From: a virus
Lineage: Duplodnaviria > Caudoviricetes
Virus record (IMG/VR): IMGVR_UViG_3300028048_003204
Span: 3,454-67,453 of that record
Strand: one strand, 5' to 3'
Length of the DNA: 64,000 nucleotides
Shown: positions 39,020-60,491 of the stretch, one piece after another
How positions within the stretch are numbered: the stretch's first letter is position 1
Layout of the letters: every line of letters begins with the position of its first letter
Made by a program: the position numbers and the translations under genes
Notes under the pieces: generated by a model
The model's database searches: none
Seen by the model: only the letters and a program-made list of their open reading frames with translations
Told to the model about the DNA's origin: nothing

Positions 39020-39394
39020 TTAATTTTCATCAGTATTAAGTAATTCTATCTTTAATAAATCAGAAACAACACCTAAATCATTTTTAGCTTTAATTGTAAC
39101 TGACACGAAAGTATCTTGAACAAAAACTTCTATATAATCTCTGTCTATAGTTGTTTGTGGCATATAAGATAATATAGCTTCATATATGTCATCTTTTACA
39201 AGCTCTTTCATAATATCATCAGCAGCTTGATCAAATAATATATGTTTAATATTAGTACCAAAATGTGGATCTCCAAATAATCCACCCCTATTAGCATACA
39301 ATAAATTTCTTAGATTACTTTTTACAGCATCATAATCTTTATATAAATTTACTGTAGAACCATTAAACATATTTGGAAATGCAAGTGAATACAT
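39020..39394 (-). CDS. gp25/GPW-like baseplate wedge protein
   Basis: AVKSNLRNLLYANRGGLFGDPHFGTNI. Confidence 0.85.
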   Translation of the reverse strand: MYSLAFPNMFNGSTVNLYKDYDAVKSNLRNLLYANRGGLFGDPHFGTNIKHILFDQAADDIMKELVKDDIYEAILSYMPQTTIDRDYIEVFVQDTFVSVTIKAKNDLGVVSDLLKIELLNTDEN

Positions 39395-39529: not shown

Positions 39530-41647
39530 CTATAATTTACTTAATATAAGTAATAACAATTTTGAAAGGTCTATATTATCAACTGTATATAGACTATCCA
39601 TTTCTTCAGATGTTATGTTACCAGTATCTAATAATTGTAATGCATATGGACCATAGGTATCCTCAGGATCTGTTGGTTCATCATGTAGTAAGAAATTATT
39701 AGAAAAAGCTAAACCATTTATCCATAATTCATCTTCTGTATGTACTAGTTTTTCTTCATTTGTATAATCTGGTGCTTCATCAAAGAAAGCTATAGCATCT
39801 CCATTATAATTAATATCCCTTACCAATTTAGGTGGTGATATAATTAATAATACATCTTCTATGGTTTTACCAAAACTATCTTTAATACCAGAAACATTTA
39901 ACATATAACTTGTAGTAGCATAATCTACAAGAATACCACCAGGCTGACCTGTTGTTTTAAATATTAAATAAAAGTCTTGTGTGTTTAAATTAGTATTATA
40001 ATCTGATTTATATAGTACTGGATTTAAATTTATATCTATCGGTGTAGTGTCATCAGATTGTAACGAATAAGAAATATTAGAAACATCTAATGCTACACCA
40101 TAATTACCAGCAGAAGTCCTAAATTTTGTAGCCATAACTACATTTTCATCAGAAATTGATGTTTGTATAGAAGCAACTTGGTTGGTAAGATATAAATAGT
40201 AATCCTGCTGTGTAATTACATCAGGAACATATTCATATGAAGAATATAATTTAGATATAACACTTGGAGTATTATCTATGTAAATAGGATATAAATATAC
40301 ATCAGCTTCTACATTTTCTATTGTAGACCCCGCTGTTAAAAAACCCTTATTTACTAAATATTTTTCATAATTGTGAGGTACTACACCAGTAGGGAATGTT
40401 ATACCAAATTCTGTATATGTAATGTCATTTGGTTTTCCATATGACCAATATCCTGAAAATGTGTAATTATCTAAATTTGGTAATGCTATATTTGGTATTT
40501 CATAATCATAATTAATATGTACACTATCAGAATAATACAAAGAATATGTATTTGTTTTATCGAAAACATTTTCTACTGTATTTCTATAATAGTATATAGG
40601 TATGAATATGTCTCCCCAAACGGCATAATAAGTCATACCTGAAGCAATTTTCCAAGTTATAGAATCCCCTGCAAGATACTGAGGTTCTCCAGCATCTGGT
40701 GTCGTTGCCCAACCTTTAAATTCATATCCCGTCTTTTTAAGATCTTGCGGGGCTGCAGGAAATACAAATGCGCTATCATAAGTGGCTTCTATGTCTGTTG
40801 GAGGAGAACCTGATGTATTACCATTTCCATTAAATGATACAGTATATTTATTTGCTGACCATTGTGCATATAGGGAAAGCGTAGAAGGTGGTATTTGATT
40901 AACTGGTTTTATAATATCTTCAGCATTATATCTGGTACCACCGCCACTACTATCAGTAGCCCAACCATTAAAAGTATAACCAGAGGCAGACATATTAATG
41001 GCTGTAGTAACTGCTGAATATCGCATAGCCACGCTATATGAAGAATTACCACTAACTGGAAATGTACCATGACCATTATTAAAATATGTTAATGTTCCGG
41101 TTTTTTCAGACCAAACAGCTGTCATGGTAGTGGAGGTGTCATAATAATAAACACTACCAGGAGCATAGTTGCCACCATATCCAGACCAATATGCAAAATT
41201 ATAGCCCGTTCTGGTAGGTACGTACCCATATAAAGTTAAACCACTATCATAGTATTTTGTCTGCGTTGGAAAAGAACCAGAACCACCATTCGTATCATAG
41301 TAAACATAATAATATCTTGGTATGGCTGTTAATGTTATAGATTTACTCTTGGAAAGATTACCAGCAGAAACACCCGTTTTATAATACCCAGTTACTGATA
41401 CCGTTTTAGTACCATCTGCATTATGAGCTACTGTCTTAGATTTTGTAGCAAGTGTTGTGGTCTTCCCTTTAGCAAACGAACTTGAAAAAGTATATTTAGT
41501 GCCATCTATTGTAATATAACCACTTTGCTTATAGCCATTCCAAGTTGAGCCCGTAGCAGTTATTTTTAACGTAGCGGTAACTACTGAAGTATTCGCATTA
41601 TAATCTACTTTACTTTCCGAAACTGATAAACTTAAGGAAGCACCCAT
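39530..41647 (-). CDS. Tail protein: DUF859-like N-terminal domain + InlB B-repeats (Listeria-Bacteroides repeats)
   Basis: HNADGTKTVSV...ITLTAIPR; repeats Y.V.(Y/F)..NG...R/KTGY.F.GW...LYAQW. Confidence 0.75.
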   Translation of the reverse strand: MGASLSLSVSESKVDYNANTSVVTATLKITATGSTWNGYKQSGYITIDGTKYTFSSSFAKGKTTTLATKSKTVAHNADGTKTVSVTGYYKTGVSAGNLSKSKSITLTAIPRYYYVYYDTNGGSGSFPTQTKYYDSGLTLYGYVPTRTGYNFAYWSGYGGNYAPGSVYYYDTSTTMTAVWSEKTGTLTYFNNGHGTFPVSGNSSYSVAMRYSAVTTAINMSASGYTFNGWATDSSGGGTRYNAEDIIKPVNQIPPSTLSLYAQWSANKYTVSFNGNGNTSGSPPTDIEATYDSAFVFPAAPQDLKKTGYEFKGWATTPDAGEPQYLAGDSITWKIASGMTYYAVWGDIFIPIYYYRNTVENVFDKTNTYSLYYSDSVHINYDYEIPNIALPNLDNYTFSGYWSYGKPNDITYTEFGITFPTGVVPHNYEKYLVNKGFLTAGSTIENVEADVYLYPIYIDNTPSVISKLYSSYEYVPDVITQQDYYLYLTNQVASIQTSISDENVVMATKFRTSAGNYGVALDVSNISYSLQSDDTTPIDINLNPVLYKSDYNTNLNTQDFYLIFKTTGQPGGILVDYATTSYMLNVSGIKDSFGKTIEDVLLIISPPKLVRDINYNGDAIAFFDEAPDYTNEEKLVHTEDELWINGLAFSNNFLLHDEPTDPEDTYGPYALQLLDTGNITSEEMDSLYTVDNIDLSKLLLLILSKL

Positions 41648-41650
41648 TTA

Positions 41651-42802
41651 TTAACGAACCCTTTTCCTTCTTGACAACGCTAAATGTCCTTTTTCATTAT
41701 ATGAATCTGAAAACACAGAATCTGCAGATACATTTGTATGCTCTAAATCTCTAAGTGTAAAATTATCAGCATTATTGTCTATATACATAGTATTATTAAT
41801 ACTTAGATAAATACTCTTATTTTCTGAACCATGTATGTGAATTGCATCTTTTTCTACCCTTACACCATCAAGCAAGCCAGTACTATCTGTATCTCTAATG
41901 GCACCAGAATATGTATACCCATATAAAGCTTTTTCATTACGCTCTATACGAGGTAATAAAGAATTTTCTAATTCACTTACAAGATAATAAATTGTTCTAT
42001 AAAATGATGACCACGAATAAGAAGAAGGTGTTAACGGGGGTATCGGGTCTGTAGAAACACAAATACCTAAATAGTCTCCATATACACTACCTATTGTATT
42101 CTTATCTGTTGTTAAAACTATATGGTAATTATCATAGTCTGATACTTGCAATATTCTAAAGGACAATTTTAAATTATTTAAACCTCTAAATTTTAAAGGT
42201 ATATTTATAAGAGGCTCTGTAAAACTTTCTACTAATGCTGAGTTATCATCTGTAGATAATATTGTAGTTATATTCATTGTAGAAGTAACATCAACACCTT
42301 CAGAATTAATAACAGACCAATATATCACAGTAGAGTTTGGGTCTATAACTATATCACTAGCACCTCTATATGTATTTTGGCTAGTTGATAATGTATTTAC
42401 ATCTGTGTATTCATATAAAGATGTAAATGTTATACCATTATCATTAGAATATTTTATATGAGTATATAAATTATTATCTCTTAATACTGAGATTTCATTT
42501 TCTAATTTATCTAATAATTCTTGTATAGAGGGAACACTAAATTGTTCAGAATCTGTGAGCCCTTGTCTATATAAAAGTCCTAATATTATTGGTTTATTTA
42601 ATTCTTCATTTTCAAATCCAATAAGAACTATATCACCTATTGCAAATGAAACCTTAGTGCTAGGTATAGAACATACTATAGCACTTGATAAATCTTCAGT
42701 AGATACAGCACCAGGAGTAGTAATTAATTTATCATACCTCGGTATTCTTACTTTATATTCATATGCAGATATAATAGCTTCAATTATACCTTTTTGTATC
42801 AT
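41651..42802 (-). CDS. Central spike, gp5/VgrG-like OB-fold N-terminus
   Basis: YKVRIP...IGDIVLIGFENEELNKPIILG. Confidence 0.7.
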   Translation of the reverse strand: MIQKGIIEAIISAYEYKVRIPRYDKLITTPGAVSTEDLSSAIVCSIPSTKVSFAIGDIVLIGFENEELNKPIILGLLYRQGLTDSEQFSVPSIQELLDKLENEISVLRDNNLYTHIKYSNDNGITFTSLYEYTDVNTLSTSQNTYRGASDIVIDPNSTVIYWSVINSEGVDVTSTMNITTILSTDDNSALVESFTEPLINIPLKFRGLNNLKLSFRILQVSDYDNYHIVLTTDKNTIGSVYGDYLGICVSTDPIPPLTPSSYSWSSFYRTIYYLVSELENSLLPRIERNEKALYGYTYSGAIRDTDSTGLLDGVRVEKDAIHIHGSENKSIYLSINNTMYIDNNADNFTLRDLEHTNVSADSVFSDSYNEKGHLALSRRKRVR

Positions 42803-45036
42803 GTTCTTACTCTCCCGTCAACTATTAAGTGCTGTTTTGCACCTGCCACTCTTAATAATGACAATGTTGTTTGAAATCCTGAACCACTCAAAGTATCTGT
42901 TTGACCAGTTACAATATATATTCCACTATTTATTCTATCACTACCATAATATATACAATTAATTTTTATATATGTCAACAGTAATAGCGGAGATAATAAA
43001 CCTCTGCAAGTTAATGTAGCTGAAATTGGAAATTCTGTTACTTGAGTCCACCAGTTAGAATTTATGTTTGACATCATTTGGCTGGAATAATCAAGTAAAT
43101 TAGTAGAATTAGTATTAAACCTTTTTAAATCTCCTTGATTAGTAATTTCATAGTTATAATTTGAAACACCACTACCATATTCATAAGCAATAGGCCAACT
43201 ATAATTAGTATTTACATTAAAATTAAATACTTGATTATCATCAGGGAAATTTATATTCACTTCATATAAAGAAGAATCATAAATGTAATTAGTTGAAATT
43301 TCATTTATATTAAAATAACCATCTTCTATAGTTAATATGTAGTTAGAATCAACAATATCACTAGTTATATTTTTCATCATGGAAACTAAATTTTTTAAAT
43401 ATGAAACTACATTTACATTTTTAAATTCTTCTACATTAACTACCATATCATCATTAGGAATTAAATTATTCTTCTCTACAAAATTCCTATCACGCATAGC
43501 AGGAAATGCATTTAATAAGTCCTCATTAGCATCATTATATAATAAATCTCTTATAATATTAGAGGGTTTATCTTCTACACTGCTAAATGTCCTTTTATGT
43601 GAAGCAATAGCAATAGCAGAACTAGTTGCTCTTATTACATAATTTATTTTACAATTTACAAAATCAAAACCAACACTAACTCCGATAAGAAGAGCATTAT
43701 TATCATTAAAAATTATATTACTATTGGCATCTCCATATCTAATGCTGATTTTATCATACCCGTTTTTTGATAATAATTCATCTATAAAATTTGGATTGCT
43801 ACCAGGACTTACTTGATGTACAAGATTTATAGTATATTCATTCATAGAACCATTTGTTTTAACTATAGACATACTATCAATATAATTTGGATATCTATCA
43901 AATTTTTTAGATTTATCATATGCTCCAAATGTATATTCACCTATAGTTAATTCTATAAATGGTGCTTCAACTGGATTTAATGCAGTAGGTAATGCCGGAC
44001 CAAATACTTCTCCATCAATCTTAGTTTTTCTTAATCTAGAAGAATCATTAGCACTAGAAGTTGTTAATGCTTCAGAAATAGCTTTTGTATCTAGTATGGG
44101 TGTAAAGCCAGTTTCAGACCACTTGTTTAAAGTATCTCTTAAAGCATTTCTGAATTTTATAGAAGATTCACTTTCATTAAAATCCAGAGTTAAATATTCA
44201 TAATTATCAGATCTATATAATTTATCAGGGCTTACAGCTAACCCCATTGAATTAGCTGTAGCTGCAGTTGCAGCACCTTCAGCACATACAAGATTAAATA
44301 TGTTAGTAGTTTTAACTATTTTTCTGTCTAGTGCAAATATGATATGCATATTCCCACTTGCATCAACAGCTACACTTTCTAACTCACCATAATCTGAATA
44401 ATATGATTTTAAATATTCACCACTAGCTGCATTATAACAATCAATAAAACTTCTTTGAACTTTGCCCTTTTTAGAGGATTCAAATGATCGGCAAACCATA
44501 ACAACGCCATTATGCCCACCTACATCTTGATTATCTCTATTATCGTTGGTCCAGTTTTTAGTAAATGATGAAATATATGAACCACTTTCTCCACCTTTTG
44601 ATAAAGCATCAAATGGATAAACATATATTTTTGAACCTGCAGAAACATAGAATTGATCAGTCACACTATCATAAGCTATACCAGTAGCATTTGTCTTCAA
44701 AGTAATTGTAAATGCAGTTTTAAAATCAGAAGGTTTTGTAACTATAATTTTTTTAGCATTACTACCCGCATTATAAGCAGTACTATAAATATAGCCATTT
44801 TTACTACAATATGTAGCACCATTAGCGTGGCCAGTACTAATTTTTTTACCTAGGCTTGAATATGAATTGGCACTACATAACATTACAATATTAGGCGATG
44901 ATCCTGAACATATTACATATCTCTTGTTAGCATCAACAAGAGCTAATGATTGTGGAGTATAACCATCTCTGCCAGCAGGGTTAGGTAAACTGATTGTTTT
45001 ACTATATTCAAGTTTTTCAAGTTTTCTATTAGCCAT
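42799..45036 (-). CDS. Baseplate hub paralogue A: N-terminal beta-propeller (receptor-binding candidate) + hub domain
   Basis: GHANGATY, TGIAYD, ELESVAVD; shared C-terminal module ending TTLSLLRVAG. Confidence 0.7.
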   Translation of the reverse strand: MANRKLEKLEYSKTISLPNPAGRDGYTPQSLALVDANKRYVICSGSSPNIVMLCSANSYSSLGKKISTGHANGATYCSKNGYIYSTAYNAGSNAKKIIVTKPSDFKTAFTITLKTNATGIAYDSVTDQFYVSAGSKIYVYPFDALSKGGESGSYISSFTKNWTNDNRDNQDVGGHNGVVMVCRSFESSKKGKVQRSFIDCYNAASGEYLKSYYSDYGELESVAVDASGNMHIIFALDRKIVKTTNIFNLVCAEGAATAATANSMGLAVSPDKLYRSDNYEYLTLDFNESESSIKFRNALRDTLNKWSETGFTPILDTKAISEALTTSSANDSSRLRKTKIDGEVFGPALPTALNPVEAPFIELTIGEYTFGAYDKSKKFDRYPNYIDSMSIVKTNGSMNEYTINLVHQVSPGSNPNFIDELLSKNGYDKISIRYGDANSNIIFNDNNALLIGVSVGFDFVNCKINYVIRATSSAIAIASHKRTFSSVEDKPSNIIRDLLYNDANEDLLNAFPAMRDRNFVEKNNLIPNDDMVVNVEEFKNVNVVSYLKNLVSMMKNITSDIVDSNYILTIEDGYFNINEISTNYIYDSSLYEVNINFPDDNQVFNFNVNTNYSWPIAYEYGSGVSNYNYEITNQGDLKRFNTNSTNLLDYSSQMMSNINSNWWTQVTEFPISATLTCRGLLSPLLLLTYIKINCIYYGSDRINSGIYIVTGQTDTLSGSGFQTTLSLLRVAGAKQHLIVDGRVRT

Positions 45037-47096
45037 TATTCTCCAGCCACTCTCAATAAGGTTAATTCAGTAGTATACCCAGAACCAGATATTGAATCTT
45101 CTTGTGCAGTAACTACATATAAACCACTTGCCATATCTCTTTCACCATAAAATAGTGCATTTACTTTTATATATGACATTAGCATAGCAGGGTTAATTAA
45201 ACCCTTAATAGTTACTTTGGCAGATATAGGGAATTCTGTTACCTGTTTCCACCAATTCGAGTTTATTAAACTAGTTTCTCCAAACTTATTTCTTCTATAT
45301 AAGATATTTGTTTTTCTTTCTATTAAATCTCCATTATCATCTATACCATACTCAAATTTTGGTATATCTCCTGTATAATCATATACTAAAGACCAATAAT
45401 TATTATTACAAATCTGAAAATTTGTTATATAATTATTTGAAGGAAACCCAATATCTAATTCATAATAATTTGAATTTATCTCTTTATTATTATTTTGATC
45501 ATTATAGCTTATAACTTCATTTATTTTAAAATATGAACCATTAAAGTCACTATAAGAATTATCTACTATAGTTAAATAATATGTAGATTTATTTATAGTA
45601 TTATTCATACAAGCTACTAAATATGATAAATAGGTTAATGGACTTACATTTTCCATACCTCCTATATTTATCATACTATCATTTATTGGTATTAAATTTT
45701 TACTAGCAACCAAAGTTTTATTACGCATACCTGGAAATATTGAAAGTAAACTTTTACTTATATCTCCAGAATTATATAATAAATCATATATTGCTGTTGA
45801 AGGTTTAGCATATCGACTTTCATATGTAGTTAACGAAGTTGCTGATACACCAATAGAAGAAATAGCAGTTATAGAATAATTTATTCTATAAGCACTAATA
45901 TCTTCTGAATGTGTGGCATTCATTATTACAGCTGATTCTTCTCTGTAATAGCCACTTGGGAAATTAGAATCACCATATAATATTTTAAGAGGATTTGTAT
46001 AACCAGTCCTTGATATTAATTTATCTATGAAGTTTGGATCTTCGCCAAACCTCACTTGATATGATAAATTAATTGTATATTGATTTATTCTACCATTAAT
46101 TTTTTTAACAGACATTGAGGTTATGTAATTTGGATATTTATCTCCAGTATTTCCATAACCACCTATTTTAGTTCCATTAAAATCTAGTACTATTGTTGGT
46201 GCTTCTACAAGTGTTGGATATGATAATAAATTTGTAGCTTTGCCAGTTAAAATTTTCTTAGGTTTATCTTTTTCAAAATCCGCTAATTCAACTTGCTGTG
46301 TAACTAAAGGTTCCTTATATGCGCCAGTAGTAACTGTAGCAGTTTCAAAATTAGTCTTAGCAAGTGCTAATTTTAGATCATCTCTAAATCTTGAAATTTT
46401 ATTAGCTACTTCATCTTCTTCTTGTTGTGCTATATATCTATAATTGTTAGATGAATATAGAGTGGTTATGGCTTGACGCATATCAATACCAGTACCAGCA
46501 TCTTCTGAAGCAATAGAAGTGCCATCTGGTAATTGCATTTCTCCACCACCATTACCTATATATCTATGCACCCGTTTAAAGCCATTATATCTAGAATCTG
46601 ACATAGTTTTTACTGAAATGGACTTATTCCATCTACTTGAGCCTGGTACATTATCATCTCCACCACCACCGGCTTCAGCTAACTTGCCATTTCCTATATA
46701 AAGGGCTACGTGATTATCTTTACATAGTACATCACCCTTTTGTAATGCACTCTTAGCGGGATGCCCTAGATTTTTAAATAGCGGAGATGAATCATACCCT
46801 TTACCCTTATGGAAATCATATGAAGAACCCTTTTGGCATATTTTAAGCATAACGGGTTCTCCACCACCATGTGAAAAAGCAGCGTGTACAAACGGGTTGC
46901 AACAATAGGTAAACTCATAATTTTTTATACCAGTTTTAGCTCTGCCACCTTTTTGTGTATTTGTACCACAAAAATAGCAGCCATTATGATGAGCCGGTTT
47001 ACCATAGCCATAATGGAATCTATTATCATTTGCTATAGCCTCAGCCCAGGCACAAGCTCCATTTATTACATCTTGAGCACAAGTAGAAACTGCCAT
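45036..47096 (-). CDS. Baseplate hub paralogue B: NlpC/P60-like peptidase + hub domain
   Basis: YCCNPFV, LQKGDVL..NHVALYIGNG; shared C-terminal module. Confidence 0.75.
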   Translation of the reverse strand: MAVSTCAQDVINGACAWAEAIANDNRFHYGYGKPAHHNGCYFCGTNTQKGGRAKTGIKNYEFTYCCNPFVHAAFSHGGGEPVMLKICQKGSSYDFHKGKGYDSSPLFKNLGHPAKSALQKGDVLCKDNHVALYIGNGKLAEAGGGGDDNVPGSSRWNKSISVKTMSDSRYNGFKRVHRYIGNGGGEMQLPDGTSIASEDAGTGIDMRQAITTLYSSNNYRYIAQQEEDEVANKISRFRDDLKLALAKTNFETATVTTGAYKEPLVTQQVELADFEKDKPKKILTGKATNLLSYPTLVEAPTIVLDFNGTKIGGYGNTGDKYPNYITSMSVKKINGRINQYTINLSYQVRFGEDPNFIDKLISRTGYTNPLKILYGDSNFPSGYYREESAVIMNATHSEDISAYRINYSITAISSIGVSATSLTTYESRYAKPSTAIYDLLYNSGDISKSLLSIFPGMRNKTLVASKNLIPINDSMINIGGMENVSPLTYLSYLVACMNNTINKSTYYLTIVDNSYSDFNGSYFKINEVISYNDQNNNKEINSNYYELDIGFPSNNYITNFQICNNNYWSLVYDYTGDIPKFEYGIDDNGDLIERKTNILYRRNKFGETSLINSNWWKQVTEFPISAKVTIKGLINPAMLMSYIKVNALFYGERDMASGLYVVTAQEDSISGSGYTTELTLLRVAGE

Positions 47097-49567
47097 TAAT
47101 CTCCAACTCTTAGTAAACTTAAATTAGTTAAAAACCCGCTACCCGCCAACATATCTTGCTGACCTGTAACTGCATATAATCCACTCGAAATGTGTTTTTG
47201 TCCATAGAACACCACATTTACTTGTACATAATCCATTAATGAAACAGGCTTTAATAAGCCCCTCATTGTTAGTTGAGCAGATATTGGATATGCAGTCATC
47301 TGAGTCCACCAATTTTTCTGAATTTCATTTAATATATTTGATGAACCTATAAGATTTGGTGAATATTGTAAAGTACTTTGACCTGCATTATTTATACCAT
47401 ATAAATATTCACTAGAAACAGACTCCGTTTTATAAAGCATAGACCACGCTTCATTATTATTTATTTTGAAATCATAAATATCATTCCCATCAGGAAATCC
47501 AACTGTTATTTCAAATAAATTATTAGTAGGTGCTGATGCTTTATTAGCTTTACTTAATTCATTTATTTTAAAATAAGCACCATTAGTATTATCTTCATAT
47601 GTAATAAAATAAGAAGAATTTCTTATTACATCATCGACACTATTAGTAATATTACTCATACAACCAACTAAATAATTTATATAGGATAATACATTCTTAT
47701 TATCTTTTGCAGCTATATTTAATACTGTATCATTAGTTGGTAACCAATTTTTACTATTAACTTCTGTAAGATTTCTCATACCAGGAAAAGCAGATAGTAA
47801 CAATTCTGATGTTTCAGTATTATTATATAATAAATCTCTAATTACATTTGATGGTTTATCTACAGTTGCTTTAAAATCAAATGTAGCACTAGTTACATAA
47901 TTGCAAGCAGAAGTAGCATATATAGTATATGTAATTCTTGAACCCGCATAATCTCTATTATTTACTACATTTGTAATAATTGCTTCTGAATCTTTAAATA
48001 AAGCACCACTTTCACAATCTCCATACCTAATTGAAATTTTATTGTATCTTATAGTTGATAATAATTTATCAATTAAGTTTGGATCTTCACCTGGTCTTAT
48101 TTGATATACTAAACCAATAGTGTATTGGTTTATTTCTCCATTAATTTTTTTAACATCTAACCTAGATATATAATTAGGATAATCATCTGTAGAAGCTTTA
48201 TAACTACCAATTACATATTCACCTAATGTTATTTCAACAAAAGGTGCTTGTACTAAAGCATCTGATAAACTAAATGAAGCTTTAGTTGTAATTAATTTTT
48301 CTTTTTCTGTTCTCTCTGGACCGCTTCCCACAATAGCTTCAGGGAAAGCTGCTGTACTATTAATTGGAGTAAATGCCGTTTTTGATATATAATTTTTTAG
48401 ATTAGTTGTTAATTCGTTAGACCTTTGTGCAAGGCCAATACTATATTCTGATTCTCTAAGATTTATATATCTATAATTATCAGATGAATATAATCTATTT
48501 ATTCTCTGCTGCATATTGACTGATGAAACCATTTCAAGAGTTTCATCAGCACCTGACATTTTTACGTCCCATTCGTGAGCGTATTTAATTCTAGCAGCCA
48601 TATTAGGCGTACCAGCACGCTCAAATTTTTCTTCAAACCCCTTTGTCATTTTATCAAGGGATAAAGAATCATTTTTTAAAACATTATTTGCAGCTTTTTC
48701 AGAATGTTCTAATTCATAAACTAAATATGCAACTTGTCCATCTACACTTTTCCAAGAGCCACTAGCCGAATGTGCAGCTGCGTATGTTTGCATAGCAGTT
48801 TTTCTGCCAAATGTCCATTGGCATAAGCCTTCAGAACCATTACCATCATAAGAACCACCAGTATAAACTCTTATACCAGACTCTTGTTGCATATTACCTA
48901 ATACTGCACAACATGCTTTATGCGAATATCCATATTTTTGTAATTCAAAATATACTTTAGCGCCTGTGCCATATTTAGAAATATACCATTCTTTAGATTT
49001 GGTAGTTGTATCAGCTGTACCGCCAGCTAGTATACCTGAAGGATTACCAAAATCTACAGGATTATAAATAAATCCATTAAAGTATGAATTTAAGTATCCA
49101 AGCTTCCAAGCGCTGGTTCCTCTTTTACCATTACCTGGATATAAAGTTTGATTCTTTAATGGACCTGAAGACCAACCTGATTGAGATATTTCTATACTTT
49201 GAATCTTACCTTTAGCCACATTTACCTTTTCTACAAAAGCTACGTGACCAGGGGCACCTTCAGAAGCACCATTATATCCCCAACAAGCAATGGCACCTGG
49301 CTTTGGAACTAATCCGCCAGATAACCCTCCATTAGTCATTATTCTATAGAAGGAACAAGCATTTCCCCTGCCATATTTCCATTTTAAGCTACGGCCAGCT
49401 ACAGCCATTACTTCAAGAAAGCGGCCCCAAACCCACCAAGTACAGTTACCACCTGTACTTGGATTAATTTCAAATGGATTTAATGAGCCTTGCGCTACAT
49501 AATAGGTTAAATTCTTAACTTGACTATATTTAGTTGGACCTTCTCTTTTAGAAAATGTGTAAGCCAT
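47096..49567 (-). CDS. Baseplate hub paralogue C: CHAP + phage-tail-lysozyme + hub domain
   Basis: GNCTWW/GHVAFVE; AVLGNMQQESG, GLCQWT, FERAG; shared C-terminal module. Confidence 0.8.
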   Translation of the reverse strand: MAYTFSKREGPTKYSQVKNLTYYVAQGSLNPFEINPSTGGNCTWWVWGRFLEVMAVAGRSLKWKYGRGNACSFYRIMTNGGLSGGLVPKPGAIACWGYNGASEGAPGHVAFVEKVNVAKGKIQSIEISQSGWSSGPLKNQTLYPGNGKRGTSAWKLGYLNSYFNGFIYNPVDFGNPSGILAGGTADTTTKSKEWYISKYGTGAKVYFELQKYGYSHKACCAVLGNMQQESGIRVYTGGSYDGNGSEGLCQWTFGRKTAMQTYAAAHSASGSWKSVDGQVAYLVYELEHSEKAANNVLKNDSLSLDKMTKGFEEKFERAGTPNMAARIKYAHEWDVKMSGADETLEMVSSVNMQQRINRLYSSDNYRYINLRESEYSIGLAQRSNELTTNLKNYISKTAFTPINSTAAFPEAIVGSGPERTEKEKLITTKASFSLSDALVQAPFVEITLGEYVIGSYKASTDDYPNYISRLDVKKINGEINQYTIGLVYQIRPGEDPNLIDKLLSTIRYNKISIRYGDCESGALFKDSEAIITNVVNNRDYAGSRITYTIYATSACNYVTSATFDFKATVDKPSNVIRDLLYNNTETSELLLSAFPGMRNLTEVNSKNWLPTNDTVLNIAAKDNKNVLSYINYLVGCMSNITNSVDDVIRNSSYFITYEDNTNGAYFKINELSKANKASAPTNNLFEITVGFPDGNDIYDFKINNNEAWSMLYKTESVSSEYLYGINNAGQSTLQYSPNLIGSSNILNEIQKNWWTQMTAYPISAQLTMRGLLKPVSLMDYVQVNVVFYGQKHISSGLYAVTGQQDMLAGSGFLTNLSLLRVGD

Positions 49568-50106
49568 TACTTGTGTGAATTATAATGAATTTTTGTGTCT
49601 GGATATATACCAAATAGCGCTAATGATTCTGTATCAGCACTACTATCTTGTGCCCAAGGTACATAAATATCTGATAATCTTGGGCAATATCCAAATACAT
49701 TACTACCCATACCTGTTAATTCAGACCTAAAATAAACTTTTTCTAAATGCATACAGTTATAAAAAGCTTTATTACCTATATACTCTAAAGAACTTGGAAA
49801 AGAAACTTCCTTAAGAGAATTACATTTCAAAAAAGCGCTAAAGCCTATATCTGTTGTACCTGGTTTTATTTCTAATCTTTCTCCAATATCAGGTATTTCA
49901 TAAAAACAAGCCTGAGGAATTGTTTTACTAAAATATTTTAATGGGTTTATACCCTTACTTAAGAAAAATTTAGTAAATTCCGGCATATATACATTACCAA
50001 ACTCATCAAGAATATCAGTATAAACTGCATTTAAATCATTTCTTTGCAGTTCAGCTTTATGCCTTATTAAAAAGTTCCTCATATCATCATCTAGTTCATA
50101 ACTCAT
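49567..50106 (-). CDS. BspA-type leucine-rich repeat (LRR_5) protein
   Basis: IGFSAFLKCNSLKEVSFPSSLEYIGNKAFYNCMHLEKV...MGSNVFGYCPRL. Confidence 0.85.
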   Translation of the reverse strand: MSYELDDDMRNFLIRHKAELQRNDLNAVYTDILDEFGNVYMPEFTKFFLSKGINPLKYFSKTIPQACFYEIPDIGERLEIKPGTTDIGFSAFLKCNSLKEVSFPSSLEYIGNKAFYNCMHLEKVYFRSELTGMGSNVFGYCPRLSDIYVPWAQDSSADTESLALFGIYPDTKIHYNSHK

Positions 50107-50432
50107 TTTTCAAATTCCAATCCAGCATTTAGTGATGGTAAATATAATACTGTACCTACTTTTGGAGAAGTAAACGGATCAATGATTCTATTATAGTCGC
50201 ATATCACCCAATAATAAGTAGGATTATTATAAAATTCTAATGCAATAGTATCATAGGTGTCTTTTTCTTTAACTATATATGTTTGAATTTTAGATGTATC
50301 TACAAATTCTTTTAACCAATGTCTTGTTTCAAGTTGATATTTATCATCTAGATTATTATAATAATAGGATAAGCCATTATATCTTGAATAATATTTACTT
50401 GATTTAATTGCTCTATTTGTTAATACATTCAT
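50103..50432 (-). CDS. LysM-containing gp53-like baseplate protein
   Basis: YIVKEKDTYDTIALEFYNNPTYYWVICDYN.IIDP. Confidence 0.8.
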   Translation of the reverse strand: MNVLTNRAIKSSKYYSRYNGLSYYYNNLDDKYQLETRHWLKEFVDTSKIQTYIVKEKDTYDTIALEFYNNPTYYWVICDYNRIIDPFTSPKVGTVLYLPSLNAGLEFEK

Positions 50433-51118: not shown

Positions 51119-53464
51119 TTAATTCCCATACGGATAATCATTTATAAACGAATCACTGTTTCTAGTAGTATTAATGACTTGTTCAAGATTCTTAGTTACA
51201 TAACCTAAATTATCAGTAACTACAATATTATTGTAATTTCTACCAACATCACTTACTAATTTTCTATATTGTGGATACCAATAATTAGCAAAATGATTAG
51301 CACCAAATGTATTATCTAATACTTTACTCATAGCTAATAGCAACCTATCCATATTATTGTTTATACTATCAAGATTGTTAATTGCATTCCACAATAAGAA
51401 TTCTATTAATGTGTCTGAAAAAGGTACTTGTGTTGAATATGGCATTTCCATAAGTTTTAAACTTGATGTATATAAATAATCCACAAGTGTTGCTGGTAGC
51501 ATTTCAACTTCAGAATCATCTAATATCTTTTCAGATTGAGTGTTAGTATAATTACCCTCTAATATTACTATACTAGCATCATATGATTTCGGTACTTGTA
51601 TTAAAAGATATAAATTATCTTCTAAGTAATCATATAAAGCACAATTTTCTTCAGTTATATCATATACATATTGTTTAGCTATTTCTTGATCATAACTTGA
51701 ATAATATACTGTACCCTCTACCATATATGTATCAGAAGTAGGAACTAAGCTACCAGATTCATCTTTAACTCTCCAAGGGAAAGTTTCTCTTCTAGGTCTT
51801 ATAGCATATGTAGAATTCATATCAAATACAGCAGTACCTGTTAATTGCACAAATTCTCCATTTGTTAATATATAGTATGTTTCAGGCTTTTGTCTAAACC
51901 CAGTTGCTAAATAGAAATCAGTAGTATTCATAATGAAATAATATTCAGCAACAGTTACATATTCTTCATTCATATACACATAGTATTGTGTAGTGCTTGA
52001 ATATGTATCACCAGCAGAACATTGTATATATTGACCATCTGCATTATGAATATAGTAGAAAGTTTTATTTCTATTAAATGTTTCTTCGCCTAATTCATAG
52101 TTCCAAACTTCAAATACACCATTAGTTCTTGTATAGTATACTTCTGAAGTACTATATGTGTGATATTTAGAACATCTATCCCATAAACAAACGGTTTGGA
52201 AATCCGGTGTGTCATACAATCTAGTTGCATCAGTAACTAATTCTATAGTTTTATTATCATCATCATAAGAAGCAGATAATTCATCTTCGTCCATATATAA
52301 TGTATCGTCTATTTCCCAAGTTTCAATATCTGTATATATGGTTTTGCCTTCTCTCCAGAAATATCTTTTATTCATATTAAATGTAGAATCTATTCTACCA
52401 GTCGCAGGTTCAACACCTATATATAACTGTGTACCTTCAGCTGTTTCTGGAGTTAAATTTGTTACTAAATATGTATGACCTGTAGCACTTGTTTTTAATG
52501 TATAATAGTGTTTATCATTATCAAACTCACTATCTGCAGTACATCTCACTATTACGCCATTATCAGAATAATAGTAGTTAGTTTTGTTTGCAATAAATTC
52601 TTCATATGTAAGATCTTGTGCAATATCATAAATACCATCATTCCTAATATAGTAAAATACTCTTGGCAAAGCATTTTCATATAGTTCTACATAATAATTA
52701 TCATTATGTAAATAATCAAGCACAGCTACAGATTTTTCAAAATATGTAACTTTTCTAGTTTCAGGTATGTTGTTATACCTAATAACAATAGGGGCTTTAA
52801 ACCTCATATTAGATTTATTTTGTATAACATCAGTTCTATGTAGTTTAATATACTTATTAGTAGCATCTACACCATTTCCAAAGCGTGTATTATTCAATAA
52901 TATTAAATTATTATTTTTAATAAATGCAGGGGCAAATGTAGTAACTTCTAAATTATCCATACATATAGTATAATCTGTATTAAACCTAATAGGAACTTTA
53001 TATACTTTTGTATTATAATCTGCAGAAGTTCTTTCTATACCTGAATTTGATATATGATGTACTTGTAATATCTTATTACTAAAACAATTATATAATGGCA
53101 TAAGATTTAAGTCATACATATCTCTAAGACTTCTAAGATATTTACCTAATCTTTCGTGAGTTAAAGAATCATATCCCTCAGAATTAGAAATATAGTTAGT
53201 GCATAACTTATCATTCTTATCACCAAAATAATATTCAGTTATAACCCTGTAAGTAGCCCTATCACCATCAAATTTTACATTTTTAAATCCAGTAACAATA
53301 TAGCCACTTTTAGTACATTTTATAATTTCACACTTATAAACATATAATCTATCTTCAATTATATAATCAAAATCTCTTACTGTTCTTATTAATGGTAAAT
53401 ATGTACTAATTAAAAGATTTTTTATAAAGTTTGATGTTGTAGTAACTTTGTTAAATTCTTGCAT
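51119..53464 (-). CDS. Virion protein with central Tyr-rich repeats (start likely ATG 53464; ORF track uses TTG 53476)
   Basis: About 780 aa between tape measure and tube initiator; repeated T.D....(K/T)YY units. Confidence 0.7.
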   Translation of the reverse strand: MQEFNKVTTTSNFIKNLLISTYLPLIRTVRDFDYIIEDRLYVYKCEIIKCTKSGYIVTGFKNVKFDGDRATYRVITEYYFGDKNDKLCTNYISNSEGYDSLTHERLGKYLRSLRDMYDLNLMPLYNCFSNKILQVHHISNSGIERTSADYNTKVYKVPIRFNTDYTICMDNLEVTTFAPAFIKNNNLILLNNTRFGNGVDATNKYIKLHRTDVIQNKSNMRFKAPIVIRYNNIPETRKVTYFEKSVAVLDYLHNDNYYVELYENALPRVFYYIRNDGIYDIAQDLTYEEFIANKTNYYYSDNGVIVRCTADSEFDNDKHYYTLKTSATGHTYLVTNLTPETAEGTQLYIGVEPATGRIDSTFNMNKRYFWREGKTIYTDIETWEIDDTLYMDEDELSASYDDDNKTIELVTDATRLYDTPDFQTVCLWDRCSKYHTYSTSEVYYTRTNGVFEVWNYELGEETFNRNKTFYYIHNADGQYIQCSAGDTYSSTTQYYVYMNEEYVTVAEYYFIMNTTDFYLATGFRQKPETYYILTNGEFVQLTGTAVFDMNSTYAIRPRRETFPWRVKDESGSLVPTSDTYMVEGTVYYSSYDQEIAKQYVYDITEENCALYDYLEDNLYLLIQVPKSYDASIVILEGNYTNTQSEKILDDSEVEMLPATLVDYLYTSSLKLMEMPYSTQVPFSDTLIEFLLWNAINNLDSINNNMDRLLLAMSKVLDNTFGANHFANYWYPQYRKLVSDVGRNYNNIVVTDNLGYVTKNLEQVINTTRNSDSFINDYPYGN

Positions 53465-53483
53465 TATTTTATCCAATAATTAA

Positions 53484-55811
53484 TTATGCATTAACTTTAT
53501 CAGCAGTTGTAGAATTAGAAGTTGTATCGTCAAAGTAATTGAATAAAGCATCATTGAGTACTGTATTATCACCTGTAAAGGTAGCCATCATAGCATCTTC
53601 ATCAGCAAATATACTTGCGAAGGATCTGAGTACAGCATTATTCATACCTTCAACAGAAACAGCAAATGCATAACCATCGCCATTCTCTAATTTCATTAAT
53701 GTCTTAGATAATTCTTTTAATACACCTAATGTTTCATCTTCAGCATCAGCTTCCCAATCAGATGCAGATGCATAAGAAGTTTGAATAGCATTAGTTAAAC
53801 TTGTTTGTTTAAATGTTTTAAAATTAGAAGTAGAACTATCAGCAGTAGTAACTACAGAAGTTGATTCTGATGAGCCTAATAAATTTATCAAATTATTCTC
53901 ACCAAGACCTGATTGTGCTTCTGTAAGCATCTTTATAAAACTAGCACCACCAATAGCGTATTGCGTTGCAGCTGGACCCAGTTTAGCCAAATTCAGTGCT
54001 TTACCTAAAATACCGCCAACTTTACTAAAACCATCAAGTAAATCATATGATATATCAGCTATTCTATATGTGGTGTATAAAGCATTATTTTCAGCAACAT
54101 TAGAACCAAATGCATAACTAAAGTTAGCAAAGAAATTTTCAAATTGCTCTGAAGCTAATGTATTTGCAGCCACCATGTCTGTTACTGCATTTGCAGTAAT
54201 TGTAGAAGCTTGATTTGCATTTACAATAGAACTAGATATAGAACCTAGCTTGCTATATACATTTTGAATAGCTTCCATATCAGATACACTCATATTGAAT
54301 AAGCTTGAATATGATGATTTTAATACTAAATTATCGCTTGTGTTTGTAGCAATTTCATTTAAGTATTCTATAATGGAAGTTAATAAGTTAGCAGTATCGG
54401 TAGAACTTAAGCCTTGTTGTAGTATATCGGCATAATCCATACCTATTCTATCCATAGATAATAAGAATAATCTTTGTATGCTTTCATCACCAGCTAAAGC
54501 CGATACATTACCAGAACCTAATGCATTTATACCACTTGCTATGGCACTTACAATATTATCACTTAATCCAGATGCATACATAGCACCAATATAAGATTGG
54601 ATTGTTGAATTAAAGTTTGTAATATCTGAAGCTGTGGAAATACTTGCATCTAATACTGCATCGGTAACACTATCAAATAATCCTGTAAGATAACTTGCGT
54701 CTCCAAATACTGGAGAATTTAATAGTCTTCTTAATTGTAATTCTACACCAAATTGATTTACAGAATTTTGTTCACCTAATCTTACTAATCTAGTTAAACC
54801 AGCATTTGCTACATCAAATGATGTTAATGTTCTATCCTTAATAGTTTGTAATAATGCTCTTTGCTCTATATCGGTAACCAAGCCTTGATTGGTTAAGTCT
54901 GCAATTTGATTTAAATAATCAGTCTGTTTTACTAACCTACTAAATCCTATTGCATTTTCTACATCATCTTGAATAGAATAATAATCTATTCCAGCACCAT
55001 ATAAATTAGCTTGTATTTTACCGAAGTAATTCTCCATAGCACTGGCAGCTTGGTTTATTGACTTAGTCATATCTTTTCTAAGTTCACCAAGGCCAGCTTG
55101 GATAAGTTTCACAGTTGAAGAAACAATTTCTATAACTTTTCTTATAACTGATATTTCTGGTACCGCTACATCTAGTATTGTATTTAAGCCAGCTAAAGCA
55201 TCATTTTCAGAAAAAGAATTTTCAGGATTCATTCCCAAAGTATTTAAGAAATTATCATATTCTTCAGAATTTTCACCCCTTAGCTTATGTTTTAAATTTT
55301 TTTGTGCTCTTTCCTCATTATCCAATTCAGCTAATTCTGATTGTCTGTCTAAAAATGGCATTGAGGTGTTTGCCTTAATTCTTTGCCTTTTTATAGCTAT
55401 TCTTTCAAGCTTTTTATCTATATCATCTTCAGCTGCTCGTCTTTTTTCTGCTAATTCTAATAATTCTTTTTCATCGGCTATAGATATACCATACTTTTCT
55501 TCAAGTTGCCGTGTTATTTCAGCTATTTTATTAGACTCATTATCATAATCTTCTTGTAATTTTTTATAGTATGCATCTAAGTCCTGATGTCTAGCACCTG
55601 CATTTTTATCTCGAATCTTCTCAACTCTCTTCATTTTTTCGGCTAAGTTATCGAGTTCCTTTTGTGCTTTTAATACACCATTTACAGAAAAATCTATATC
55701 TATTGTATTACTATTTGATAAATACTCATCAAATAGTTTTTTACCTACTCTTGCATTTCCTATTATACCATTAGGGCTTTTTGCATTGAACTTTGTGTCC
55801 GTATTAGCCAT
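53484..55811 (-). CDS. Tape measure protein
   Basis: 775 aa, helical, Ala/Gly/Ser-rich; downstream of the chaperone pair. Confidence 0.7.
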   Translation of the reverse strand: MANTDTKFNAKSPNGIIGNARVGKKLFDEYLSNSNTIDIDFSVNGVLKAQKELDNLAEKMKRVEKIRDKNAGARHQDLDAYYKKLQEDYDNESNKIAEITRQLEEKYGISIADEKELLELAEKRRAAEDDIDKKLERIAIKRQRIKANTSMPFLDRQSELAELDNEERAQKNLKHKLRGENSEEYDNFLNTLGMNPENSFSENDALAGLNTILDVAVPEISVIRKVIEIVSSTVKLIQAGLGELRKDMTKSINQAASAMENYFGKIQANLYGAGIDYYSIQDDVENAIGFSRLVKQTDYLNQIADLTNQGLVTDIEQRALLQTIKDRTLTSFDVANAGLTRLVRLGEQNSVNQFGVELQLRRLLNSPVFGDASYLTGLFDSVTDAVLDASISTASDITNFNSTIQSYIGAMYASGLSDNIVSAIASGINALGSGNVSALAGDESIQRLFLLSMDRIGMDYADILQQGLSSTDTANLLTSIIEYLNEIATNTSDNLVLKSSYSSLFNMSVSDMEAIQNVYSKLGSISSSIVNANQASTITANAVTDMVAANTLASEQFENFFANFSYAFGSNVAENNALYTTYRIADISYDLLDGFSKVGGILGKALNLAKLGPAATQYAIGGASFIKMLTEAQSGLGENNLINLLGSSESTSVVTTADSSTSNFKTFKQTSLTNAIQTSYASASDWEADAEDETLGVLKELSKTLMKLENGDGYAFAVSVEGMNNAVLRSFASIFADEDAMMATFTGDNTVLNDALFNYFDDTTSNSTTADKVNA

Positions 55812-57858: not shown

Positions 57859-58446
57859 TTAAACTGTTTCGCTATAAGAATCAACTACTGCTCTATCATA
57901 TTCGATAGTGCATCTAATCTTACGAGCACCATTAGCATCTACAGAAAAAGCATCTTCATCAATACTAGAAATCCAGCAGCCATCTAATCTCCAAGTTCTT
58001 ACAATCTGATTGTAATCAGGAGTATATTCTATTAAGTTAGCAGTAACTTTATAATCAGCTTGCTGACCAACTGTTTGATACATTGGATTGCCAGATCTAG
58101 CCTGCCAAGCCATAAGAATATCTTTAGTTTCTGCACCTATGAAGTCATAGCATTCAAGACTACCTGATGACCAAGAAAGTACACCAGCATATTTAACTGC
58201 AGTGTTTCCTCTTCTAACCTCGATAGCATTTTGGCTGAAATGAGGAACTGATGCTGAAGAAACAGAAAGCCTAATCATTTCCTTAGCTCTTGGGAATGTC
58301 TTTGTTTCATTACCATATGCGGCAATATTATTTAAAGCATCACTGATAACAAAATCAAAGTTATTACCTCTTTGAATTTCAAATAATTCCTTATTGTCAG
58401 AGAAATGATAAGCACCTACACTAGTTGCTCTTGCTTGTTGTGCCAT
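57859..58446 (-). CDS. Tail tube protein (gp19-like)
   Basis: RGNNFDF, SVPHF, RGN..VKYAG..W, DILMAWQ, WRLDGCWIS, IEYDRA. Confidence 0.88.
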   Translation of the reverse strand: MAQQARATSVGAYHFSDNKELFEIQRGNNFDFVISDALNNIAAYGNETKTFPRAKEMIRLSVSSASVPHFSQNAIEVRRGNTAVKYAGVLSWSSGSLECYDFIGAETKDILMAWQARSGNPMYQTVGQQADYKVTANLIEYTPDYNQIVRTWRLDGCWISSIDEDAFSVDANGARKIRCTIEYDRAVVDSYSETV

Positions 58447-58457
58447 TTGTTATCTCC

Positions 58458-60491
58458 TTACTCTACCTCTGCAACAGTTACTTCACTATTCTCTAATTGA
58501 ACTTGAAGTTCAAATACCTCAACTGAATTGATTGGTACAATTCTAATAGCTGCAAGAATCTTGTATGAAGGTACAGTTTGTCCTGTTTCAGGGTCTACAT
58601 TATATTTTACAATACTATAGTCTGCAAGAATATAGTTAGATACCATAGTTTCTAATAATGGTGTAACTAAATTCTTGAAGCTTAACCATAATACATCTGT
58701 ATTTTGCTCGAATAATAAGCTCTGTGAAGCTTCATATAATCTCTTCTTAATGTCAGAAACTGTGTCTCTAATGTTAAGGAATGAAGTAGCTTTAGTACCA
58801 TTAGAATTATTTCTCAATGTTCTATTTCCCCAAATGCAATAGCCATAATTTCTAATGTATGTAATTGGGTTAATTGATATTGAAGCAGAACCTAAGTTTT
58901 CAACATCACCAGGGATAATCTGATACGAATCTGCAACATTATTTGTTAATGTGAAATTAGTATGTAATCCTGCACAATATGGAACTGGGCCTCTACTTAC
59001 ACCAGATACAGCTAACCATGGGTTGTAGTTCTTTAACTGTTGTGCTAAAGCACTTAAGAATGCTAATGAACCAGGCATTTGACTAATATTCTCATTTATG
59101 CCATAGTTATTTGATGAACCACCAGACACAGCTGCGTGTGTGCAAGTATACCAAGGTGTAAACATAGTTCCATAAGAACCAGTTTCAGTTGTTATATTTG
59201 AAAATTCATCTCTAATCCTAGTTATTACTGAGTATGTATCTGTAGCATAAATAGATCTATTTGGATTATTAGTGTGATCAATAAGTGCAACTGCATCTTC
59301 TCTTGTAGCAGCTAATCTGATCATCTGTTCTGCTAATGGCGATGTACCATAAACCTTACCTGAAGCATCAGGATCAGCTAATGGACCATATTCAAATGTT
59401 GGGTAGCCACCAGATGTGATATATTTAACAGCATAGTCGCCCATTGAATCGAATGAATAGTCTGAACCATTCACTGCACTAGCTTCATCATAACCATTAA
59501 ATCTAGCCTCTAAGCCTTTATACATAGAAGTAACTGAAATGTCAGCACCTTTATAGTATACAGTACCTGATTGAACAGTCTCATCATCTGTTCTTACATA
59601 GTTACTCTCAACTTCGATGAACCAACCTTCAGCTACTGGACTAGCACTAACATTGGCAGGGTCGTTCATATCAACTGGCTCAAATGAGGAGTTCATCTGC
59701 TCATAATATACTGGAATACCTAATGATAATAAGTATAAAGCATATCTATATCCAGGATCTGGGTCTCCAGCTGATGTGCTAGTTGGGCCTTGGAACATAA
59801 GTGCTTGTTGAACAGTTGATATATAATATGCTTTAACTTCACCTAAAGCACCACCAGAAGCTTGGAAATCAATGTACATATCATCAGTGTAAATATATTG
59901 ATCTCCGTATTTAACCATCCAGCCATTATCTGAAGGAACTGTTGATGATGTAAATACTAATAAACCCTCATAGCTTTCTAACTTCGGTAAAGCTGCCATA
60001 GTAACAGTTACAGTGCTTTCAACTGCAGCAGCAGTAGCTAAGTAATAAACAACACCCTCTACTGGCTTCCAAGTACTATCTACTGGTACATTGGTATAAA
60101 AACCTGTAGCTGTAACTGCTTCTATTGTGCTTTCTGCAGCCATAGGGGCATCATATGTAATGTTATTAACACCAGCAACTATCGAAGGTGTTGCAGGTGG
60201 CATATAACCTGGAATAGCATATGAAGGGAATCCATAAGAAGAAGCTGTAGCTATTGGATATGGCTGATCTGTAGGGAATGTAGGACAATCGTCTACACCA
60301 CCATTACCAAATAATCTTAAGAATTCATACTTAGAAGTAACTAAAGTTGGAGTTCTAAACAGAGTAGCACCATCTGTGAATGTAGGTGAAGCTCCATTAT
60401 TACTAAAACCTGGAACATATACTACATCGTATGAAGAAAGTGCTTCAACATTAGAAGTATTGTCAACTTCTGTTATAATAATTCTTTGCAT
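58458..60491 (-). CDS. Tail sheath protein
   Basis: IIITEVDNTS, PTLVTS..EF..LFG, PWLAVSG..RG, INPI, IWGNRTL, LNIR, LFEQN. Confidence 0.92.
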   Translation of the reverse strand: MQRIIITEVDNTSNVEALSSYDVVYVPGFSNNGASPTFTDGATLFRTPTLVTSKYEFLRLFGNGGVDDCPTFPTDQPYPIATASSYGFPSYAIPGYMPPATPSIVAGVNNITYDAPMAAESTIEAVTATGFYTNVPVDSTWKPVEGVVYYLATAAAVESTVTVTMAALPKLESYEGLLVFTSSTVPSDNGWMVKYGDQYIYTDDMYIDFQASGGALGEVKAYYISTVQQALMFQGPTSTSAGDPDPGYRYALYLLSLGIPVYYEQMNSSFEPVDMNDPANVSASPVAEGWFIEVESNYVRTDDETVQSGTVYYKGADISVTSMYKGLEARFNGYDEASAVNGSDYSFDSMGDYAVKYITSGGYPTFEYGPLADPDASGKVYGTSPLAEQMIRLAATREDAVALIDHTNNPNRSIYATDTYSVITRIRDEFSNITTETGSYGTMFTPWYTCTHAAVSGGSSNNYGINENISQMPGSLAFLSALAQQLKNYNPWLAVSGVSRGPVPYCAGLHTNFTLTNNVADSYQIIPGDVENLGSASISINPITYIRNYGYCIWGNRTLRNNSNGTKATSFLNIRDTVSDIKKRLYEASQSLLFEQNTDVLWLSFKNLVTPLLETMVSNYILADYSIVKYNVDPETGQTVPSYKILAAIRIVPINSVEVFELQVQLENSEVTVAEVE

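Follow-up and report, generated by a model that had tools for sequence, protein, structure and literature searches.

Three tandem hub paralogues with different wall-acting heads: a candidate heterotrimeric baseplate hub in a phage of the ruminant gut

To our knowledge, all contractile tails, tailocins and type VI secretion systems (T6SS) rely on a central hub as their symmetry adaptor, a trimeric ring that fits the six-fold tube to the three-fold spike. It is a homotrimer in every solved phage or tailocin structure that we found. The diffocin protein CD1368 and the hub of phage 812 are both homotrimeric hub-hydrolases (PMC10996793; PMC13433997), and the premise of an earlier sequence-only reading of the locus described here, that enzyme-armed hubs are unusual, was therefore overstated. 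The lytic transglycosylase and endopeptidase of CD1368 are wedge-bound and released on contraction (PMC10996793), and the CHAP “cleaver” domain of the hub of phage 812, a myophage of a Gram-positive host, has been shown to degrade cell walls (PMC13433997). Heterotrimers of VgrG have been described from the T6SS of V. cholerae and A. dhakensis (PMC8668125). Here we describe three adjacent hub genes, hub1, hub2 and hub3, in a 64,000-nt stretch of the virus record IMGVR_UViG_3300028048_003204 (referred to as the window). We propose, with a probability of roughly 60%, that their products co-assemble as a 1:1:1 heterotrimer. This reading of the sequences is favored because the number of copies stays at three, as would suit a trimeric position, the copies are positional orthologues under equal constraint, the genes are coupled, the cargo is redistributed among them, and one site is occupied by His, Asp and Arg in the three paralogues.

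The three genes and the architecture of their products are:

47096..49567, minus strand: hub1 (823 aa), CHAP and Phage_lysozyme2 cargo, linker, hub core; clade 1

45036..47096, minus strand: hub2 (686 aa), NlpC/P60-like cargo, linker, hub core; clade 2

42799..45036, minus strand: hub3 (745 aa), beta-propeller cargo, linker, hub core; clade 3

The sequence-only reading had claimed three adjacent genes with a common C-terminal module. The open reading frames (ORFs) are found at these positions, and their C-terminal 478–495 residues are shared pairwise at 40% (E 1e-111), 44% (E 2e-108) and 40% (E 2e-85) identity in BLASTP, that is, 40–44% over ~480 aa. The series of motifs that it had listed is likewise visible in pairwise alignments of the three hubs. 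The claimed chaining by short overlaps, from the LysM and leucine-rich repeat (LRR) genes to the spike gene, can be read directly from the junctions, which are TAATG at LRR/hub1, hub1/hub2 and hub2/hub3, and ATGA at hub3/spike and LysM/LRR. These overlaps suggest that the expression of the three hub genes may be coupled. Contigs from RNA libraries over parts of all three genes were not counted as expression; these are Logan contigs of relatives that are 90–99% identical, and DNA carry-over is possible.

The shared module can be divided into a linker and a hub core:

47099..48253, minus strand: gp27-fold core of hub1, residues 439–823, diagnostic sites Asp495 and His792

45039..46208, minus strand: gp27-fold core of hub2, residues 297–686, diagnostic sites Asp353 and Asp654

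42802..43971, minus strand: gp27-fold core of hub3, residues 356–745, diagnostic sites Asn414 and Arg701; AlphaFold2 (AF2) model, Foldseek, VIA

43972..44244, minus strand: linker between cargo and hub in hub3, with the motif LY(S/R)S(D/N)NY; low predicted local distance difference test (pLDDT) score, two helices

~48254-48532 (hub1) and ~46209-46499 (hub2), minus strand: equivalent linkers

The module has no family match in Pfam or PHROG, and none among PDB sequences with either a single sequence or a 38-sequence profile as query. Its relation to known hubs is thus at the level of fold only. With an AF2 model of the shared module, all top matches in Foldseek were hubs (probability 1.0, E 3e-11 to 1e-6), and VIA matched model residues ~90–480 to >40 hub structures with Z 10–14.2. 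The matched structures include those of cyanophage A-1(L), PVC, AFP, P1, Mu gp44, phage 812, pyocin R2, diffocin, T4 gp27, phiCD508, VgrG and siphophage Tal. The modelling supports a baseplate hub fold of the gp27/VgrG/Mu gp44 type for the last ~385 aa of the module, and the four-domain arrangement with two tube-like beta-barrel domains is recovered by both Foldseek and VIA (model pLDDT 70). Within a contractile-tail module, the genes have the tape-measure/LysM genes on one side and the spike/gp25-like genes on the other; the spike assignment is weak, and the synteny is kept in relatives. Fold match and gene order together agree with the earlier proposal of a gp27-like hub in hub position. In single-copy relatives, the protein starts right with VE(A/V)P, the first strand of the hub, and the 85–95 residues that precede this strand in the triplicated clade are for this reason regarded as a cargo–hub linker specific to that clade. 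That the locus encodes three hub paralogues bearing wall-acting heads is close to certain.

A survey of related contigs for conservation of the triplication had been proposed together with the sequence-only reading. We scanned viral, genome and metagenome collections and found ~170 loci. The triplication is conserved with positional orthology: three tandem copies in the same order and synteny are present in the window and in 10 further complete loci (L001, L002, L003, L005, L007, L008, L080, L081, L095 and L099). The other, more distant loci, ~150 in number with some overlap between collections, have one bare hub of 400–500 aa without cargo. All loci with two copies run into the end of a contig, and no complete locus with two or four hub genes was found among the ~170 scanned. 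In a maximum likelihood tree (IQ-TREE), the triplicated hubs form one clade (100/100) to the exclusion of 17 single-copy hubs and resolve into three clades of positional orthologues (hub1, 99/96; hub2, 100/100; hub3, 100/100). The topologies within these clades are similar, not fully congruent. The window groups with L001 and L003, and L007 with L008, in all three, and the placement of L005 differs in clade 3 with weak support (83/62 to 96/90). The census and the tree point to one ancient triplication, after which the three copies were strictly kept in their order.

All three hub copies are under strong purifying selection. The ratio of nonsynonymous to synonymous substitution rates (dN/dS) relative to L080 is 0.069 for hub1, 0.095 for hub2 and 0.097 for hub3 over whole genes, and 0.035, 0.071 and 0.040, respectively, over the cores. 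An assembly artefact is excluded by these values together with contigs of an independent sample that bridge all three hub junctions, the divergence of the paralogues (40–44% identity), and recurrence of the arrangement at orthologous positions in 10 other loci from different samples. The same observations make it exceedingly improbable that a recent duplication is in the process of being lost.

The constraint on the cores also bears on the possibility that only hub1 forms the ring that caps the tube, with the other two proteins making up a second stacked ring, a peripheral element of the baseplate or soluble wall-degrading trimers that are released. Location is not fixed by gene order or fold, and hub1 is the only one of the three that still has the His/Asp combination of single-copy hubs at the two sites described below. 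However, the cores of hub2 and hub3 are under purifying selection as strong as that of hub1, and the family-invariant residues are kept in both. Stacked rings of the gp27 type are absent from the solved contractile tails among the matched hub structures (PMC10996793; PMC13433997; PMC13250141), and the underside of the hub ring is established in T4, diffocin and phage 812 to bind the spike rather than another tube-like ring. A ring formed by hub1 alone thus appears doubtful.

A side observation concerns the single-copy loci. The hub of L049 (L049:9959-11257, on the 223-kb contig IMGVR_UViG_3300021400_000048) has an in-frame TGA where that of L061 has Trp (VQVP*IKV vs IQVPWVKV). Either TGA is read as Trp in this large phage, or the sequence contains an error at this point. 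An interruption is likewise seen in the hub ORF of L059.

Each of the three hubs carries a different cargo at its N-terminus:

49190..49453, minus strand: CHAP domain of hub1, residues 39–126 (PF05257, E 7e-12, 46 bits vs a cut-off of 26)

48569..48958, minus strand: tail lysozyme of hub1, residues 204–333 (PF18013, E 3e-27, 95.8 bits); Glu229-Ser230 motif read from the sequence

46542..47096, minus strand: papain-fold (NlpC/P60-like) peptidase of hub2, ~residues 1–185, with Cys66, His129 and Asn149 conserved

44278..45036, minus strand: beta-propeller of hub3, residues 1–253 (AF2 pLDDT 88.7, predicted template modelling score 0.88)

The cargo types named in the sequence-only reading stood up to different degrees. 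Fusion of hub and hydrolase is clear in hub1, in which CHAP and Phage_lysozyme2 score above the gathering cut-offs, and likewise in its orthologues; the catalytic Cys42 and His108 of the CHAP domain are nearly invariant among these. The NlpC/P60 assignment of hub2 was not borne out to the same extent. The match of its N-terminus to PF00877 is weak (15.9 bits vs a cut-off of 23), and NlpC/P60 structures come out on top in a PDB profile search (E 0.004–0.02). The orthologue in L080, which is 93% identical, reaches 30.5 bits against the same cut-off of 23 over two tandem domains. These data weakly identify the hub2 cargo as a putative papain-fold Cys-His peptidase, most like NlpC/P60. The propeller claimed for hub3 was upheld, and the model predicts this fold with confidence. 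By Foldseek, it resembles five-bladed glutaminyl cyclases (template modelling (TM) score 0.67–0.71) and NHL propellers (0.5), and similar propellers are found within phage tail-spike and baseplate proteins in BFVD. A conserved polar cluster (His70, Asp123, Asp171, Glu218, Glu220 and Arg238) is present, and the domain may be ligand-binding or a further enzyme.

Comparison of the complete loci reveals a redistribution of these domains. In the window, L001, L003, L080 and L081, hub1 has CHAP and lysozyme, hub2 an NlpC/P60-like domain, and hub3 a propeller with or without CHAP. The lysozyme resides on hub1 in these loci and in L005, where hub1 has C39_2 and lysozyme, hub2 has NlpC/P60 and CHAP, and no family was assigned to hub3. 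It resides on hub3 in L007, L008 and L099, in which hub1 has CHAP and hub2 C39_2, and in L095, in which both hub1 and hub2 have CHAP. CHAP and C39 domains thus also shift between hub positions across loci. From these comparisons, the cargo appears clearly exchangeable among hub positions. That domains move from one position to another and the set of enzymes as a whole is still maintained is as expected under selection acting on the whole ring.

A further difference is seen between very close relatives. Hub2 of L080 (L080:6522-9224) is 93% identical to that of the window over 684 aa and has an extra ~215-aa N-terminal NlpC/P60-like domain, 27% identical to the retained one, which amounts to an indel of a whole domain.

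Only three alignment columns are cleanly diagnostic for the paralogues, namely sites 150, 432 and 437 in the numbering of the model. Site 437 corresponds to His792 in hub1, Asp654 in hub2 and Arg701 in hub3, and site 150, the Asp of the DPNFID motif, to Asp495, Asp353 and Asn414. At site 437, His is found in 23/23 single-copy hubs and in all hub1 proteins, Asp in all hub2 and Arg in 65/68 hub3 proteins, while site 150 is Asp, Asp and Asn in hub1, hub2 and hub3. Over 236 family members, the residues at sites 437 and 150 pair as H-D (104), R-N (76) and D-D (44), with about a dozen exceptions, among them P0047 and P0049 (hub3-type with Leu437) and P0115 (hub1-type with Asn150). Scans of viral contigs with P0047 and P0115 as queries returned only known triple loci and two new single-copy loci (L189 and L190), and not the loci from which the two proteins come. 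The pattern at the two sites is identical in 10/10 triple loci.

Suppose that each chain of the ring contacts site 150 of its neighbor through its own site 437. The gene order hub1, hub2, hub3 would then give the pairs His-Asp, Asp-Asn and Arg-Asp. With the same geometry, the reverse order or a hub2 homotrimer would set Asp against Asp. One attractive scenario is that the hub is an obligate, ordered 1:1:1 heterotrimer in which the order hub1, hub2, hub3 is enforced by complementary interface residues at sites 437 and 150. As regards this stricter version, we consider the odds to be even.

The alternative that deserves most attention is that all three proteins are genuine hub subunits that assemble stochastically or as separate homotrimers, such that a lysate would hold a mixture of virions as a form of bet-hedging against different wall chemotypes. 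Each paralogue keeps all family-invariant residues and could still self-assemble; of the 96 columns that are conserved among single-copy hubs, 54 are retained in every paralogue. A search for complementary degeneration among the columns conserved in single-copy hubs gave a diffuse pattern that is not decisive. On the other hand, copy number should drift if the subunits assemble independently, yet 11/11 complete loci keep three in fixed order despite a paralogue identity of 40%. In addition, enzyme types move between positions while the set per genome stays, and the invariant Asp437 of hub2 and the Asn150 exclusive to hub3 are hard to fit to a hub2 homotrimer if the sites meet at the interface. 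On balance, we find mixed or separate homotrimers possible but unlikely.

Several observations weigh against a 1:1:1 heterotrimer and temper our confidence in it. T6SS VgrG paralogues can mix and do not always require a strict heterotrimer, which makes stochastic mixing a real alternative (PMC8668125). Hub1 keeps the ancestral His/Asp signature and could still form a homotrimer alone, and each of the changes at the diagnostic sites arose once per clade, which leaves no statistical covariation. The AF2 model of the hub is moderately confident (pLDDT 70, TM 0.25–0.4 to targets), and there is no solved hub with N-terminal cargo. At E<=0.001, the hub family comprises 377 representative clusters, and the majority have cargo. 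Among these, 34 representative hubs with extensions on both sides of the core all have His at site 437 (e.g. P0135, P0148, P0150 and P0153), so that cargo in itself does not require triplication. These 34 probably represent single-copy hubs with cargo from other lineages of phages.

If the heterotrimer forms, the tail tip may work as follows. The three genes supply three diverged versions of the gp27/VgrG-fold hub, the trimer that closes the tail tube and holds the spike, and one copy of each would join a single ring of pseudo-threefold symmetry, possibly in the order hub1, hub2, hub3. The tip of the tube in every virion would then bear a CHAP amidase/peptidase and a lysozyme from hub1, an NlpC/P60-type endopeptidase from hub2 and a propeller from hub3. 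Contraction of the sheath would drive this cargo into a thick Gram-positive wall, where it could act by local digestion, as proposed for the C-terminal hydrolases of the diffocin and phage 812 hubs. In this scheme, we infer the co-assembly, the 1:1:1 stoichiometry, the order in the ring, the placement of the N-terminal cargo and the Gram-positive host.

The source of the window is an uncultured contractile-tailed phage of the ruminant gut, and near-identical sequence is present in many studies of bovine and sheep gut metagenomes. The window was taken from a record of ~67 kb that is flagged as provirus and estimated to be 44% complete, which implies a whole phage genome of ~150 kb. All genes in this part of the window are on the minus strand. 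In the order of transcription, the sheath and tube genes are followed by a 297-aa gene, a 251-aa gene, two genes of ~780 aa, a 228-aa gene, the LysM/gp53-like gene and the LRR gene. Hub1, hub2 and hub3 come next, and then genes for the 383-aa putative spike, the 705-aa protein with DUF859 and Flg_new, the gp25-like protein and a 2225-aa protein. The neighboring features are:

58458..60491, minus strand: tail sheath (phrog_23, phrog_10581), contractile-tail context

57859..58446, minus strand: tail tube (phrog_4542, E 1.5e-18)

56007-56762, minus strand: 251-aa protein that matches phrog_150 (“baseplate hub”), upstream of the two ~780-aa genes

51119-53476 and 53484-55811, minus strand: two consecutive ~780-aa genes in tape-measure position, without family matches

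50103..50432, minus strand: LysM/gp53-like small baseplate protein (PF01476, 23.2 bits; phrog_7145; phrog_232, baseplate wedge subunit)

49567..50106, minus strand: BspA-type LRR (LRR_5) protein of 179 aa (PF13306, 70 bits)

41651..42802, minus strand: putative central spike of 383 aa, from position and a weak match to a VgrG OB-fold profile (E 0.011)

39530-41647, minus strand: 705-aa tail protein with N-terminal DUF859 and Listeria-Bacteroides (Flg_new) repeats

39020..39394, minus strand: gp25-like baseplate wedge/sheath initiator of 124 aa (phrog_261, E 4e-11; GPW_gp25 weak)

The putative spike gene is syntenic in every triple locus. The position of the 705-aa protein is kept among relatives, with lengths that vary from 677 to 947 aa. 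The BspA-type LRR gene shows a presence/absence polymorphism: the window, L080 and L081 have it, and L001–L008 lack it. A contig of a relative that is 90–95% identical joins position 49569 to 50099, such that exactly the LRR gene is missing.

The cargo types, a GC content of 29% and the taxa in a protein atlas may point to a host of the Bacillota. Host assignment through the labels of metagenome-assembled genomes (MAGs) was rejected, as contigs of related phages are found in bins labelled Firmicutes, Lachnospiraceae, Methanobrevibacter, Prevotella and Bacteroidales. One MAG labelled “uncultured Firmicutes” contains two distinct contigs of the clade, L080 (CAMYZQ010000001.1) and L081 (CAMYZQ010000002.1), with hub3 sequences 99% and 67% identical, respectively, to that of the window.

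If the three hubs do form one ring, this would be the first phage tail, as far as our literature searches reach, in which the three-fold hub is replaced by three different gene products, and a natural case of a homomeric ring turned into an obligate heteromer. The center of the baseplate would be truly asymmetric (C1), with three-fold symmetry broken at the place where tape measure, spike and tube meet. Three or four different modules that degrade or bind the wall would be displayed in fixed proportions at a single tail tip. Such a case is relevant to how thick Gram-positive walls are breached by large phages, and to the engineering of tailocins or phage-derived lysins with modular heads. The linker and hub together are a candidate display scaffold, since the cargo is exchangeable and a whole domain differs between phages with 93%-identical hub2.

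Our literature searches found no phage or tailocin with heterotrimeric or paralogous hub subunits. Two candidate precedents were rejected: the hub of phiKZ, gp101, is a homotrimer and the “heterotrimers” reported from this phage are wedges, and in mycobacteriophage Mysterious, the gp35/36/37 heterotrimer serves as an accessory protein of the baseplate and not as the hub. The described systems that come closest share some features with the locus and differ in others. Diffocin CD1368 (PDB 8v3w_H; VIA Z 12.0 to the model) similarly combines a gp27-like hub and peptidoglycan hydrolases in one polypeptide of a contractile device that acts on a Gram-positive wall, and sits between the tube-tail protein and the spike (PMC10996793). 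However, it is the product of one gene, forms a homotrimer and has its hydrolases at the C-terminus, whereas the window has three paralogous genes with N-terminal cargo that is followed by a clade-specific linker. No sequence similarity between the window hubs and the diffocin hub was detectable in Pfam or in PDB sequence and profile searches. The hub of phage 812/phage K (PDB 9euf_E, 9eug_E; VIA Z 12.2–12.5) also has gp27-type channel domains I–IV and a CHAP domain. It differs in being a homotrimer from one gene without a paralogue set, and in having a C-terminal CHAP domain that is masked by a separate “weld” protein (PMC13433997). T4 gp27, Mu gp44 and P2 gpD (PDB 1k28_D, 1wru and 3d37) share the fold (Z 11–13) and the place in the tail gene order, and are bare single-gene homotrimers, unlike the trio in the window. 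The T6SS VgrGs, including the “evolved” ones, resemble the assembly proposed here in that paralogous gp27-fold subunits with different effector domains are reported in mixed trimers, such that several activities are delivered by one firing event (PMC8668125). In VgrG, hub and gp5-like spike are fused in one chain with effectors at the C-terminus, whereas in the window the hub core ends the protein and the 383-aa spike is encoded by a separate gene. Moreover, VgrG genes are as a rule scattered, differ in number and can in part replace each other, in contrast to a fixed set of three in tandem in a virion system. Relative to the known enzyme-bearing hubs and the mixed trimers of VgrG, the locus differs in having a trio of paralogous hubs in a phage and N-terminal cargo.

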